From Elainellaceae cyanobacterium (GTDB taxonomy: Bacteria; Cyanobacteriota; Cyanobacteriia; CAZCXK01), in NCBI GenBank assembly GCA_051117555.1, contig JBNPEG010000021.1:73109-137108 (forward strand): a stretch of DNA of 64,000 nt, read 5' to 3'. The position numbers were made by a program, and so were the translations under genes. The notes below the pieces were generated by a model. That model saw only the letters and a program-made list of their open reading frames with translations. It was not told the DNA's origin and did no database searches. This document shows, one piece after another, positions 22,354 through 45,155 of the stretch (its first letter is position 1; every line of letters begins with the position of its first letter).

Positions 22354-23838
22354 ATGACAGTTGCTGCTCCTGCCAAAACAAACTACGAAGCCATTATCGG
22401 GCTAGAAACTCATTGCCAACTCAGCACCGAGACGAAAATTTTCTCAACTAGTTCGACTGAGTTCGGCGCAACTCCGAATACCTACATTGATCCGGTTTGC
22501 ATGGGGCTACCGGGAGTGTTGCCCGTCCTCAACCAAACAGTATTGGAATATTCTGTCAAAGCAGGACTGGCACTGAATTGCGAAATTGCACCTTACAGCA
22601 AATTTGACCGAAAGCAATATTTTTACCCAGATTTGCCTAAAAACTATCAGATTTCTCAGTACGATTTGCCGATTGCCCAGCATGGCTGGCTCGAAATTGA
22701 GCTGGTTGATGATGCTGGCAATCCCGTCCGCAAGCGCATTGGCATCACTCGCCTACACATGGAAGAAGATGCTGGCAAATTGGTCCACGGGGGGAGCGAT
22801 CGCCTATCCGGATCAACCTTCTCGCTCGTAGACTACAACCGCGCTGGCGTGCCGTTGGTTGAGATCGTATCAGAGCCTGACATCCGTTCTGGGCAAGAAG
22901 CTGCCGAATATGCCCAAGAACTGCGGCGCATTATGCGCTATCTCGGCGTGAGTGACGGCAACATGCAGGAAGGATCACTTCGATGCGATGTCAATATCTC
23001 AGTGCGCCCCGTGGGGCAGGAGAAATTTGGCACGAAGGTCGAAATTAAAAACATGAACTCGTTTAGCGCGATCGCCAAAGCCATCGACTACGAAATTGAG
23101 CGGCAGATTGCCGCCCTCGAAGCTGGGGAGCCCATTATCCAAGAAACTCGCCTCTGGGAAGAAGGAGCACAGCGCACTATTAGTATGCGTGTCAAGGAAG
23201 GATCGAGTGACTATCGATACTTCCCAGAGCCTGATCTCGGCCCTATCGAAGTTTCGTCAGAACAGCTTGAACAATGGCGATCAGAGCTGCCCGAGCTGCC
23301 CGCAGAAAAGCGGCGACGCTATGAACACGAACTTGAGCTGTCACCGTATGACGCAAGGGTGTTAACTGACGATCTCACCATCGCTCGTTATTTTGAATCG
23401 GTGGTGGCTGCTGGAGCCACTCCAAAACTTGCTGCCAATTGGATTACCCAGGACATCAGCGCATATCTCAACAAAAATAAGCTGTCTATTACCGAAATTG
23501 CTCTCGCGCCCAACAGCTTAGCTGAGCTAATTACGCTGATTGAAGACAGCACAATCAGCACCAAAATCGGCAAAGATATTCTTCCCGACCTTCTGACACA
23601 AGGCGGATCTGCCAAAGAGCTAGTTGAGAAGAAAGGGCTAATTCAAATTTCTGATGCTAATGCGATTGAGCCCATCATTGATGAGGTTTTAACCAATCAT
23701 CCCGACGAGCTTGAAAAATATCGGGGTGGCAAGAAAAAGCTTTTAGGCTTTTTCGTTGGACAAGTCATGAAGCAAACGGGCGGCAAAGCCGATCCAAAAT
23801 TAACCAACCAGCTTCTCAAGAAAAAGCTAGATGGCTAG
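22354..23838 (+). CDS. gatB: Asp/Glu-tRNA amidotransferase subunit B
   Basis: [46 protein letters not shown]. Confidence 0.99.
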
Positions 23839-23965
23839 CAGTTCGGCAAACCTTACATCTCAGTTCCCAAACTTATTCGGTAGCTGCGCCCTATAATCTG
23901 TCAGCGTCAATGCAAGAAGTCTGTGACGGTTCTTCTGTGCCTGAGATACGAGTGAGGTCAGGACG

Positions 23966-24000
23966 AGGGGTGTCACCCCTTTTCATTAAAAGGTCATAAT
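23966..24000 (+). promoter_or_regulatory. Putative promoter 1: palindromic operator AGGGGTG-T-CACCCCT, 14-nt spacer, CATAAT -10 box
   Basis: Perfect inverted repeat at 23966-23980; the same layout recurs at 24211-24244. Confidence 0.6.
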
Positions 24001-24005
24001 GTGAT

Positions 24006-24053
24006 AAGGAATGAACCCTTATGTGGGAGAGTCGACGGTAGCTCTCCTTTTTT
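24006..24053 (+). ncRNA. Putative small RNA, copy 1
   Basis: Follows the CATAAT box; core ATGAACCCTTATG, then GGAGAGT/GCTCTCC hairpin and T6. The 5' end is inferred. Confidence 0.5.
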
Positions 24054-24058
24054 CATCT

Positions 24059-24171
24059 CTATAGCGATTCTAAATCGCGTGTGAATTGTGTGAGTGTGCT
24101 AAGCACAGAGATGGGGGTGTAGGCCATGGAGCCCCTACATCAACGGGTTTAACGTAAGCGAATACCGCTAT
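24059..24171. mobile_element. MITE/REP-like repeat related to 38121-38218
   Basis: CTATAGCGATTCTAAATCGCGTGTGAATTGTGTGAGTG is nearly identical to the sequence from 38123. Partial inverted end GAATACCGCTAT; internal GTAGG...CCTAC hairpin. Confidence 0.65.
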
Positions 24172-24210
24172 CACGAAAAAAATTTTTCATTTTTAAAGAA
24201 ATTATCTAAG

Positions 24211-24244
24211 GGGGTGTCACCCCTCATCCCCAACATGGCATAAT
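24211..24244 (+). promoter_or_regulatory. Putative promoter 2: GGGGTG-T-CACCCCT, 14-nt spacer, CATAAT -10 box
   Basis: Same palindrome and the same 14-nt spacing as promoter 1, although the spacer sequence differs. Confidence 0.6.
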
Positions 24245-24249
24245 ATGTT

Positions 24250-24300
24250 AAGTAGATGCACCCTGATGGTCGGGAGAGTTTTATGGCTCTCCCTTTTTTT
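24250..24300 (+). ncRNA. Putative small RNA, copy 2
   Basis: Core ATGCACCCTGATG, then GGGAGAGTT/GGCTCTCCC hairpin and T7. The 5' end is inferred. Confidence 0.5.
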
Positions 24301-24649
24301 ATGCCCAAATCTGTCGGCAATCCTAAACTGCGACTCTATTTACATCTAGAAGCTTTCATCACAAAGAGCTCCAGGATGGTCTTCAGATGCGCTCTATCGC
24401 AATTTTCCAATTGCGCTAAGTCTAGATAGGACGTTGGCTAGTTCAACATCGTCTCAGGACATTCCAATTTGGCAGGCGATCGCCCGCTAAATTCTTAACC
24501 GACGGTTCTTTTTAGCCCTCTATCGTGAGTCAAGAGCGTAATTGAGCAAACGGTTAACGTCTCAGGATTCGATAACCCGAACTCAAACCTCGTAATATAG
24601 AAAATGGAATTCATATTAGTACCTGTCGCTTAAATCAATCTCAATACTC

Positions 24650-26116
24650 ATGTTTGAAGCTCTTTCAGAACGTCTAGAGGGAGCCTGGAAGAAGCTCCGG
24701 GGTCAAGACAAAATCTCTGAGGCAAATATCCAAGAAGCCTTGAGAGAGGTGCGACGAGCCCTACTTGAGGCAGATGTCAGCCTGCAAGTAGTGAAGGATT
24801 TTGTTTCAGATGTTCAAACCAAGGCACTGGGTGCCGATGTCATTGCAGGGGTTCGTCCTGATCAGCAGTTCATTAAGATTGTTCACGATGAGCTCGTTTC
24901 GATCATGGGAGAAACGAATGCTCCTCTTGCAAAGGCTGACACTCCACCAACAATCGTATTAATGGCAGGGTTGCAAGGAACAGGTAAAACCACCGCCTCT
25001 GCTAAGCTTGCCCTTCAGCTACGCAAACAAAATCGCAGCTCAATGCTGGTCGCTACCGACGTGTATCGTCCTGCTGCTGTTGATCAGCTCATCACGCTAG
25101 GGCAGCAGATTAATGTTCCGGTCTTTGACCTGGGTACCGATGCAAATCCTGTTGAGATTGCTCGACAGGGGGTTGAAAAAGCCAGAGCAGAGGGCATTGA
25201 CACGGTCATCATTGATACAGCAGGCCGATTACAAATTGACCAGTCGATGATGAGTGAATTGGCTGAGATCAAGCGTACCGTCAATCCAGATGAGGTGCTG
25301 CTGGTAGTCGACGCCATGACGGGTCAGGAAGCCGCAAACTTAACGCGCACCTTCCATGATGAAATTGGCATCACTGGAGCAATTCTCACAAAGCTAGATG
25401 GAGACACCCGAGGAGGTGCGGCTCTGTCAGTCCGCCGGATTTCGGGGCAACCCATCAAATTTGTCGGCGTTGGTGAAAAGGTCGAAGCATTACAGCCCTT
25501 TTATCCCGACCGGATGGCATCTCGAATTCTAGGGATGGGCGATGTCTTGACGCTTGTCGAAAAGGCGCAGGAAGAAGTCGATTTTGCAGAAGCTGAGAAA
25601 ATGCAGGAGAAAATTCTCTCGGCGCAGTTCGATTTCACCGATTTTCTCAAACAAACCCGCATGCTTAAGACTATGGGGTCCTTAGGCGGCTTGGCAAAGC
25701 TCATCCCTGGCATGAACAAAATTTCGAGCGACCAGCTTGAGAAAGGGGAAACCCAGCTTAAGCGGGCAGAAGCCATGATCAACTCAATGACCCAAGAGGA
25801 ACGGCGCCATCCAGATTTATTGTCGGGTTCACCGAGCCGCCGTCGTCGAATTGCTAAAGGGTCTGGGTATGGGCTGGATGATGTCAGCAAGCTCGTGAGT
25901 GATTTCCAAAAAATGCGATCGCTCATGCAGCAAATGGGGCAGGGCCAGTTGATGCCTGGAATGCCTGGAATGCCTGGAATGCCTGGAATGGGAGGAAATG
26001 CTGGGGCTCCTGGCAATATGGGAGGAGCTCGACCGGGTTGGCGTGGCTATCCAGGGCCTGCGGGATCGTCAAAGAAAAAGAAGAAAAAGAAGAAAAAGGG
26101 ATTTGGTTCCCTGTAG
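24650..26116 (+). CDS. ffh: Signal recognition particle protein Ffh
   Basis: GLQGTGKTT, DTAGR, TKLDGDTRGGAALS, Met-rich M domain, KKKKGFGSL end. Confidence 0.99.
   Translation: MFEALSERLEGAWKKLRGQDKISEANIQEALREVRRALLEADVSLQVVKDFVSDVQTKALGADVIAGVRPDQQFIKIVHDELVSIMGETNAPLAKADTPPTIVLMAGLQGTGKTTASAKLALQLRKQNRSSMLVATDVYRPAAVDQLITLGQQINVPVFDLGTDANPVEIARQGVEKARAEGIDTVIIDTAGRLQIDQSMMSELAEIKRTVNPDEVLLVVDAMTGQEAANLTRTFHDEIGITGAILTKLDGDTRGGAALSVRRISGQPIKFVGVGEKVEALQPFYPDRMASRILGMGDVLTLVEKAQEEVDFAEAEKMQEKILSAQFDFTDFLKQTRMLKTMGSLGGLAKLIPGMNKISSDQLEKGETQLKRAEAMINSMTQEERRHPDLLSGSPSRRRRIAKGSGYGLDDVSKLVSDFQKMRSLMQQMGQGQLMPGMPGMPGMPGMGGNAGAPGNMGGARPGWRGYPGPAGSSKKKKKKKKKGFGSL
25952..25987 (+). repeat. In-frame 9-bp tandem repeat (ATGCCTGGA)x4, encoding (MPG)4 in the Ffh tail
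   Basis: Four exact copies. Confidence 0.9.
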
Positions 26117-38798: not shown

Positions 38799-38872
38799 GC
38801 TCCAGTAGCTCAGCGGATTAGAGCATCTGCCTTCTAAGCAGACGGTCGTTGGTTCGAATCCAACCTGGGGCG
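38799..38872 (+). tRNA. trnR: tRNA-Arg(UCU)
   Basis: Acceptor GCTCCAG/CTGGGGC; anticodon arm TCTGC-CTTCTAA-GCAGA; T-loop GGTTCGAATCC; no encoded CCA. Confidence 0.96.
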
Positions 38873-44298: not shown

Positions 44299-44372
44299 GG
44301 CGAGCGTAGCCAAGAGGTTAAGGCAGTGGATTGTGGTTCCACCATTCGCGGGTTCGAGTCCCGTCGTTCGCC
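44299..44372 (+). tRNA. trnH: tRNA-His(GUG), with encoded G-1
   Basis: G-GCGAGCG/CGTTCGC-C acceptor; anticodon loop TTGTGGT; T arm GGTTCGAGTCC. Confidence 0.96.
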
Positions 44373-45082: not shown

Positions 45083-45155
45083 GCGCTCTTAGTTCAGTTG
45101 GTAGAACGCAGGTCTCCAAAACCTGATGTCGGGGGTTCGAGTCCTCCAGGGCGCG
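45083..45155 (+). tRNA. trnW: tRNA-Trp(CCA)
   Basis: GCGCTCT/AGGGCGC acceptor; CAGGT-CTCCAAA-ACCTG anticodon arm; lies upstream of secE. Confidence 0.97.

Follow-up and report, generated by a model that had tools for sequence, protein, structure and literature searches.

Predicted tandem small RNA genes of the NsiR1 lineage behind putative HetR sites between gatB and ffh in an Elainellaceae cyanobacterium

What is encoded by two modules of the same architecture that lie between gatB and ffh in a cyanobacterium of the Elainellaceae, and which protein controls them? The modules were noticed in a stretch of 64,000 nucleotides (assembly GCA_051117555.1, contig JBNPEG010000021.1, positions 73,109 to 137,108 of the forward strand), which is referred to here as the window. 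An initial annotation, made from the sequence alone, had described them as a pair of small RNA (sRNA) genes with an unrecognized core, each preceded by a palindrome for an unknown dimeric factor, and as a possibly undescribed regulon. The analysis presented here leads to a more specific explanation. The modules are probably tandem sRNA genes of the NsiR1 lineage that belong to a subtype with a HetR box in the promoter, and their transcription would be controlled directly by a HetR dimer. The basis for this explanation in the data is the sequence anatomy of the locus, homology, conservation, co-occurrence with hetR and the boxes found upstream of hetP.

Both modules follow the same order: the palindrome, a T, 14 nt, a CATAAT hexamer, the core, a hairpin and a run of T. 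The second module is offset from the first by 244 bp. The palindrome reads GGGGTGTCACCCC in both cases. The core starts 10 or 11 nt past CATAAT and reads ATGAACCCTTATG in module 1 and ATGCACCCTGATG in module 2, with agreement at 11 of 13 positions. A GGGAGAG...CTCTCC hairpin lies 3' of each core and is followed by 6 or 7 T. With one mismatch allowed, the window contains just two occurrences of the palindrome (0.05 expected), a number that none of 100 shuffles reached. The presence of two such modules between gatB and ffh was therefore confirmed, both by the sequence itself and by the Pfam matches of the flanking genes (Table 1).

Which RNA do these modules encode? In Nostoc PCC 7120, NsiR1 is a HetR-dependent and heterocyst-specific sRNA of about 60 nt (PMC9045159, PMC4030482). 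[quoted passage not shown] The core that had not been recognized in the initial annotation is the 5' sequence of this RNA. In a permissive Rfam scan of positions 23600-24700 (E up to 10), module 2 (24250-24300) matched the NsiR1 family (RF02399) over all 60 model positions with 31.4 bits (E 5e-4), and no family besides NsiR1 was found. Module 2 is thus a relative of a described sRNA family, an outcome that had been foreseen as one that removes novelty. The conserved NsiR1 5' sequence GUAGAUGCACCCUGAU is present in module 2 and is identical to that of Nostoc 7120 NsiR1, whose transcription start is the G of GTAGATGC (Table S3, PMC4734099). In addition, the first 16 nt of the module 2 RNA are identical to six canonical NsiR1 copies of the host genome. 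In module 1, the conserved sequence is changed by about six substitutions and a 1-nt deletion. The predicted lengths of 47 nt (RNA 1) and 50 nt (RNA 2), each with a hairpin and U6-7, fit an RNA that ends in a terminator as NsiR1 does. The proposal of sibling sRNAs of about 50 nt holds in that both look like RNAs of 47-50 nt with their own promoters, an unpaired ACCCU 5' region and intrinsic terminators; they do not form a new RNA family.

Two results of the Rfam scan speak against this assignment. The NsiR1 gathering score of 39 bits was reached by neither module, and module 1 gave no match up to an E value of 10. A covariance model, R1, was built from an alignment of box-type RNAs, with module 2 in the training set and module 1 outside it. 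R1 scored 67.4 bits for module 2 and 29.3 bits for module 1 (E 3e-7 in the window). Across the host genome of 6.06 Mb the modules were its two best hits, and the canonical NsiR1 copies came next with 24 bits or less. Since module 1 was the second-best hit of a model on which it had not been trained, it is taken as a diverged box-type member, and the genome holds exactly two. By these comparisons, the RNA predicted for module 2 belongs to the NsiR1 lineage and that of module 1 is a diverged copy with an altered seed. A high-copy mobile repeat, named in the initial annotation as an outcome that would refute it, was also considered and rejected: only two box-type copies are present in the genome and the synteny with gatB is conserved.

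Both RNAs are predicted to fold into an unpaired 5' region of about 18-21 nt and a terminator hairpin. The fold of RNA 2 (-16.1 kcal/mol) is better than that of shuffled sequences (z -2.17), and the fold of RNA 1 (-12.1 kcal/mol, z -0.46) is not. An alignment of 97 distinct box-type RNAs showed an unpaired 5' region of 20 nt and 13 invariant core positions, an invariance that is partly circular in the set of public loci because these were picked by an exact 17-mer. Relatives selected by BLAST, where no such 17-mer was used, shared the core, apart from single changes in three lineages. All eight hairpin pairs of the 97 RNAs were supported by at least one compensatory change; one inner pair was CG in 44, UG in 32 and UA in 15.

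The modules had been proposed to be under selection for function, and the comparison with the sister species G002 bears this out. Both modules are kept there, with 83 of 90 positions identical in module 1 and 91 of 93 in module 2, versus 93 of 171 columns (37 of them gap columns) in the spacer between them and 13 of 38 positions in the upstream flank. The genomic location is conserved over greater distances. Of 27 homologous loci, which come from many families, 15 have the sRNA directly 3' of gatB: 8 of the 19 taken with 1.5-kb flanks and 7 of the 8 taken with 3-kb flanks. Three hetP-bearing genomes are among them. The gene ffh is the 3' neighbour in 7 of 19 loci. Judged by this synteny, the sRNA locus downstream of gatB is old and vertically inherited.

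Do both modules matter? It is somewhat doubtful, although possible, that module 1 is a decaying duplicate (a pseudo-sRNA) and that module 2 alone is of importance. The changes in module 1 affect about 6 of 17 otherwise invariant core positions, apart from the deleted nucleotide, and the missing Rfam match and the poor fold score point the same way. The 5' part of RNA 1 is changed at 4 positions in G002, while module 2 is unchanged there. Furthermore, the two tandem copies of a family member (G003) both keep the canonical core, and the only change noted is one base upstream of the core in one copy. Against decay, the box, spacing, -10 element, stem and T-run of module 1 are all intact, and its promoter (41 of 43 positions) and RNA (42 of 47) are far better preserved in G002 than the adjacent spacer. 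Divergent NsiR1 copies with partly different targets have been described in Nostoc (PMC9045159). Under the preferred explanation, module 1 would likewise be a diverged sibling with an altered seed.

The second question is which protein reads the palindrome. The initial annotation had placed the site of a dimeric factor over the -35 region. This position stands, and the factor, which had been called unknown, has an obvious candidate in HetR. In electrophoretic mobility shift assays (EMSA), GGG-N5-CCC was shown to be indispensable for HetR binding (PMC4649674). The window has such cores at 23968-23978 and 24212-24222. For hetP, the strong HetR site is GAGGGGTCTAACCCCTC (PMC4192349), and all mismatches between this 17-mer and the two window boxes fall outside the G/C triplets (Table 1). 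The consensus of the boxes in the sRNA family is GGGGT-NNN-ACCCC-tCA. On the side of the protein, the residues of HetR at the DNA interface are R62, H69, E71, K73, R74 and K76 (PMC4649674), and the HetR of the host is identical to Anabaena HetR (4HRI/4YRV) at all six.

The likeness to hetP was followed in five heterocystous, hetP-bearing genomes, in which the HetP-family genes were located by search. An RGGG-N5-CCCY box was found within 1.5 kb upstream of the best-scoring HetP gene in all five, and upstream of none of the 11 HetP paralogues. One of the hetP-upstream boxes, GAGGGGTGACACCCC, carries a 13-mer, GGGGTGACACCCC, that is identical to the sRNA consensus. From these likenesses, the dimeric factor at the palindrome is most likely HetR. 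Because the core is that of NsiR1 and the candidate factor is HetR, the locus reads as a branch of the HetR/NsiR1 circuit and the claim of an undescribed regulon is withdrawn.

Further sites of this type were seen when the host genome was scanned. The open reading frames (ORFs) beside the other top-scoring sites encode a TPR protein, citrate synthase, phosphoribulokinase, parts of ABC transporters and unnamed proteins; for two unnamed ORFs, no relative of solved structure was found. The third-best site in the genome (C54:43303-43323; L011 3004-3024) is a perfect 21-bp HetR-type palindrome, ATGAGGGGTTTGACCCCTCAT, over the ATG of a TPR-repeat ORF, and may be a further HetR target.

How would such a locus work? 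A HetR dimer would bind the palindrome (G)GGG-T-NNN-A-CCC(C)TCA at -35 and control transcription directly. The product, an RNA of about 47-50 nt, would combine an unpaired seed, which reads GUAGAUGCACCCUGAUG in module 2, with a GGAGAG/CUCUCC terminator hairpin, and it would base-pair to its targets through the seed, as NsiR1 does in Nostoc. Transcription, the RNA ends, HetR binding, the sign of regulation and the targets are all predictions from the sequence. The canonical NsiR1 genes differ in the way that they are connected to HetR: DIF1 promoters depend on HetZ (PMC7377430), and HetZ itself has been described as a sigma factor for which TCCGGA serves as the -35 element (PMC13342950). Since box-type and canonical genes share a seed, the same seed would be delivered by two routes, one directly from HetR and one indirectly from HetR to sigma-HetZ.

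What sign would the regulation by HetR have? Relative to the core G, the family consensus places the box at -41 to -29 and the -10 element at -13 to -8, and the TG of an extended -10 element is usual at -16/-15 (Table 1). The distance from the box to the -10 element is fixed at 15 nt. The centre of the box falls about 34-35 bp before the predicted start, where canonical copies carry TCCGGA; this DIF1 -35 element is absent from both window modules, and the palindrome occupies its position. Extended -10 promoters need no contact at -35. The promoter might fire without it, and this fits repression as well as activation, which weakens the case for direct activation by HetR. The comparison with hetZ of Nodularia weakens it too. 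In that HetR-activated promoter the box lies at -50 to -40 and is centred at -45 (PMC3610870), one helical turn farther from the start than the centre of the window-type box. HetR is said to activate some genes and to inhibit others (PMC11298460). Activation is judged slightly likelier than repression, because NsiR1 is HetR-dependent and both promoter classes share one seed.

A repressor model can be formulated explicitly. HetR would bind the palindrome as a repressor of a constitutive extended -10 promoter, so that the box copies are on where HetR is inactive and the DIF1 copies are on where it is active. This model is considered unlikely. It would account for the overlap of the box centre with the place of the -35 hexamer and for the frequent extended -10 TG; the only HetR-activated geometry available, that of hetZ, is a different one, and the dual action of HetR is compatible with it. 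However, NsiR1 is HetR-dependent in Nostoc and shares the seed, so opposite regulation would be less economical. The offset of 10-11 bp from the position in hetZ keeps the box on the same face of the helix, and activators whose site replaces the -35 element exist. The pho boxes of PhoB are an example, with a dimer site over -35 and a good -10 element; they are a precedent for activation only and have no sequence or protein relationship to the HetR box.

How widespread are modules of the box type? When the intergenic region was searched by BLAST against 61 related genomes, a match was found in 40. In 39 of these the match spans the palindrome to the terminator with 73-99% identity, and in the fortieth (G044) it lies outside the modules only. 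An exact 17-mer scan for the core, with one genome per species, returned at least 121 loci with at least 155 copies. Among the 155 copies listed from 121 public loci, GGG-N5-CCC stands at -42 to -38 from the core in 90 (at -40 in 73 of these), TCCNGA stands at -38 to -34 in 31, and a box with one mismatch is found in two. The remaining 32 have other promoters, mostly degenerate boxes (Nostoc, Trichormus, Tolypothrix and similar genera) and a few shifted boxes. The two main classes also differ in their terminators: a GRGAG...CTCYC hairpin is present in 87 of the 90 listed box copies and in none of the 31 listed TCCNGA copies. The named records come from many genera, among them non-heterocystous filamentous ones (Leptolyngbya, Phormidesmis, Microcoleus, Lyngbya, Symploca, Coleofasciculus, Spirulina and Limnothrix) and heterocystous ones (Scytonema with seven tandem copies, Calothrix, Rivularia, Mastigocoleus, Westiellopsis, Anabaena, Dolichospermum and Richelia). 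The 22 box-type copies scored against Rfam NsiR1, from 13 loci, gave 31.1-37.9 bits. As all 22 fall below 39 bits, routine annotation will miss the subtype.

Some loci depart from these two classes. Among the copies listed, three Microcystis loci (L103, L140 and L159) and one Chroococcidiopsis locus (L088) carry the NsiR1 core and the GGAGAG/CTCTCC hairpin with no GGG-N5-CCC upstream. A minority form (L054, L079, L120, L137 and L143) has GGG-N5-CCC about 5-8 nt nearer the core and a different, GC-rich terminator hairpin.

Is the box found where hetR is found? Both were searched for in 301 genomes sampled evenly from the class, with HetR defined by PF03574; a control with reversed patterns gave 0 matches everywhere. 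The box-plus-core pattern was present in 145 genomes, HetR in 160 and the TCCNGA-plus-core pattern in 162. Box pattern and HetR occurred together in 143 genomes, the pattern alone in 2, HetR alone in 17 and neither in 139. For the TCCNGA pattern the corresponding numbers were 158, 4, 2 and 137. A similar picture was obtained in the 61 nearest genomes, where 38 had both module and HetR, one had the module only, one had HetR only and 21 had neither. With TCCNGA-plus-core in 158 of the 160 hetR-positive genomes, DIF1-type NsiR1 must extend far beyond the heterocyst formers.

Several further observations weigh against HetR-controlled sRNA genes at this locus. An intact box-type copy is present in G014, a genome of 99% completeness in which no hetR was found with either the Pfam family or the HetR protein of the host. 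The hetR gene may lie in an assembly gap of G014, or its lineage may have lost hetR and yet kept the sRNAs. The other genome with the pattern only, G141 (62% complete), was likewise negative for hetR with PF03574 and with the same protein. In the opposite direction, 17 hetR-positive genomes lack the strict box-plus-core pattern; three of them (G012, G038 and G059) still match the module by BLAST, G012 being a core variant. Several Nostoc-type copies in the public loci have degenerate boxes. The association is tight, and yet it does not consist of independent events because the sampled genomes are related. The co-occurrence of hetR and the box may partly reflect shared descent, and both also track the filamentous lineages. 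Within the host genome, no strict box was found in the 1.3 kb that precede each of the two HetZ-related genes. As there is also no HetP gene, the box cannot be calibrated on a known HetR target of the same genome. Finally, scans of the host genome gave no convincing target of the sRNA. As a separate observation on G014, its locus L029 shows that it also carries DIF1-type copies.

A box without hetR, as in G014, would be explained if the palindrome were read by a dimeric factor other than HetR, perhaps one of its paralogues, or if it acted as a structural element of DNA or RNA, such as a weak terminator or insulator against read-through from gatB. Several genomes carry two or three PF03574 paralogues, the palindrome of module 1 is followed by TTTT, and a high-scoring site at C247:4562 resembles a terminator hairpin beside citrate synthase. 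These alternatives are nevertheless improbable. The family consensus continues past the box as TCACCCC and has no T-run, nor does module 2, and the stem would span just 4-5 bp. The box keeps a fixed distance from the -10 element, with GGG at -40 in 73 of the 90 listed copies. The same box lies upstream of all five hetP orthologues, it has the sequence that HetR needs in EMSA (PMC4649674), and the pattern was found in just 2 of 141 hetR-negative genomes.

That the conserved ATG opens a small protein (MHPDG...) and that the element is an mRNA is extremely improbable: the ATG does lie inside the invariant core and the first eight residues are similar in many copies (MHPDGRES in 26 and MHPDDRES in 24 of 111 distinct homologues), but the frames vary from 8 to 176 codons in 104 of the 111 (7 run off the locus) and read through the terminator hairpin and T-run, the indels of the loop are not multiples of three, a predicted start 3-4 nt before the ATG leaves no room for a ribosome-binding site, the nucleotides are invariant even at synonymous positions, and NsiR1 acts as an RNA (PMC9045159). 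The preference of the initial annotation for an RNA over a peptide product is upheld.

What kind of organism carries this locus? The host genome (6.06 Mb, 256 contigs) contains one copy of hetR, on C248, a nifH gene above its cut-off, two HetZ-related genes and HetZ-related-2. The search for a HetP-family gene was negative. This combination suggests that the host is probably a non-heterocystous filamentous cyanobacterium, possibly diazotrophic. Six NsiR1 copies of the host score above the Rfam cut-off (40.3-56.7 bits; Table 1). They are dispersed in the genome and have TCCGGA or TCCTGA at -35 and a GC-rich terminator. The -35 element is followed by TGGTAGATGCACCCTGA in five of these copies and by TGGTAAATGTACCCTGA in the other one; the window copy shares GTAGATGCACCCTGAT with them. 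About 1.17 kb upstream of a HetZ-related gene (C93:51441-52568, minus strand), a TCCGGA is followed by a -10-like GAATAG and then by ...GGGATGCACTG; this site looks like a further, degenerate NsiR1-like start.

Which targets would the seed have in this host? The hetP-like trans target of NsiR1 is absent, so the conserved seed must have another one. A scan of the host genome for complements of the seed gave 563 candidates, and the NsiR1 genes themselves, read on the antisense strand, took the top ranks. Among the rest, the best hit (C220) falls within a stretch that looks coding and has no start of an ORF close by. For the 5' regions of hetR, the two HetZ-related genes and HetZ-related-2, pairing with the seed was no better than background; the best of these (C161, -21.9 kcal/mol) was matched or beaten by 2.5% of random windows. 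A search of sequencing runs returned no RNA run with the locus, only four DNA runs from soil metagenomes with a word share of at most 0.36.

The box-type genes can be compared with the systems already known. They resemble NsiR1 of Nostoc PCC 7120 in the 5' sequence of module 2, in the shortness of the RNA, its unpaired 5' region and its intrinsic terminator, in the occurrence of several copies per genome (some tandem and some divergent siblings) and in the link to HetR. They differ from it in the -35 region, where a HetR-type palindrome takes the place of the TCCGGA of DIF1, and in the conserved GGAGAG/CUCUCC hairpin, which contrasts with the variable GC-rich stem of NsiR1. The location appears to differ as well: the Nostoc genes lie upstream of hetF, and the window pair lies in tandem downstream of gatB in a genome without a HetP-family gene. 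In terms of Rfam scores, box-type copies stay at 31-38 bits and thus under the cut-off of the family. The boxes share with the HetR sites of hetP and hetZ the GGG-N5-CCC, a spacer that starts with T and ends with A, and the CTCA flank. Unlike those sites, they drive a predicted small RNA and not a protein gene, keep a constant distance of 15 nt to the -10 element and are conserved far beyond the heterocyst formers. The box and the DIF1 element occupy the same -35 position in front of the same seed, and both would ultimately depend on HetR. DIF1 promoters are read by an alternative sigma factor, whereas the box is presumed to be read by a transcription factor dimer, and the -10 regions of the two differ.

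How much of this is already in print? Both the RNA family (NsiR1) and the regulator (HetR) are known. Table S3 of PMC4734099 contains 38 NsiR1 homologues, 27 of them from heterocystous strains, so NsiR1-like sequences outside the heterocyst formers have at least implicitly been published. An RNA of Limnospira "resembling NsiR1" is also on record (PMC8400943). By contrast, the promoter and hairpin subtype, the synteny with gatB and the near-universal presence in hetR-bearing genomes appear to be undescribed. A literature search, whose coverage did not extend to several central NsiR1/HetR papers, did not turn up any NsiR1-type RNA preceded by a HetR site. NsiR1 is not mentioned in the HetR chromatin immunoprecipitation sequencing (ChIP-seq) paper (PMC4192349) or in the sigma-HetZ paper (PMC13342950).

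HetR is present in almost all filamentous cyanobacteria. A predicted sRNA behind a HetR box, found in 143 of 160 hetR-positive genomes and with a conserved place near gatB, would give a concrete read-out of HetR activity, and the subtype is probably unannotated in most genomes. One seed wired to two regulators of one cascade, HetR and sigma-HetZ, is a regulatory design worth testing. It is tentatively proposed that, among the direct outputs of HetR, the HetR-box sRNA downstream of gatB is the ancestral one and the one most widely conserved, in a two-tier feed-forward circuit with the NsiR1 genes under sigma-HetZ. If this is true, NsiR1 is far older than heterocyst differentiation, the HetR-box sRNA is common to nearly all hetR-bearing cyanobacteria, also to those in which heterocysts are never formed, and the locus provides the first conserved and directly testable HetR target in non-heterocystous filamentous cyanobacteria. 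The seed targets of the box-type sRNA would then offer a route to the ancestral function of HetR.

Table 1. Features of the gatB-ffh region (positions in the window) and canonical NsiR1 genes of the host genome (contig:positions). RNA ends are inferred.
Feature	Position	Strand	Remarks
gatB, upstream flank	22354-23838	+	Pfam GatB_N, GatB_Yqey
HetR-type palindrome, module 1, flanked form GAGGGGTGTCACCCCTT	23967-23979	.	14/17 identical to hetP site; one of two top-scoring sites of the genome scan
-10 hexamer CATAAT, module 1	23995-24000	+	spacing from box as in module 2 and family consensus
Core, module 1	24011-24023		
Predicted sRNA 1	24007-24053	+	5' (A)GGAAUGAACCCUUAUG, hairpin 24025-24048, U6
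Short dispersed repeat in spacer, outside modules	24060-24092	.	blastn-short against host genome
HetR-type palindrome, module 2, flanked form AGGGGGTGTCACCCCTC	24211-24223	.	13/17 identical to hetP site; top site of the genome scan, 28.8 bits
Extended -10 TGgCATAAT, module 2	24236-24244	+	CATAAT at 24239-24244; TG in 74/96 distinct homologous promoters
Core, module 2	24256-24268		
Predicted sRNA 2, conserved orthologue	24251-24300	+	5' (A)GUAGAUGCACCCUGAUGGUC, hairpin 24272-24293, U7
ffh (SRP54), downstream flank	24650-26116	+	Pfam SRP54, SRP_SPB, SRP54_N
Canonical NsiR1 gene	C48:30153-30205		
Canonical NsiR1 gene	C1:11613-11665		
Canonical NsiR1 gene	C111:31787-31840		
Canonical NsiR1 gene	C117:5984-6037		
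Canonical NsiR1 gene	C117:6197-6248		
Canonical NsiR1 gene	C189:121765-121816		

Other features of the window are of minor relevance to the modules. The repeat in the spacer, of about 33 nt (TATAGCGATTCTAAATCGCG...), has 96 matches in the host genome including itself, of which 85-96 cover the stretch (blastn-short). It also matches many places in both sister genomes. The repeat is missing at the same spot of the spacer in G002 and is therefore probably a recent insertion. Three tRNA genes (38799-38872, 44300-44372 and 45083-45155) are the sole Rfam matches above cut-off in the whole window.

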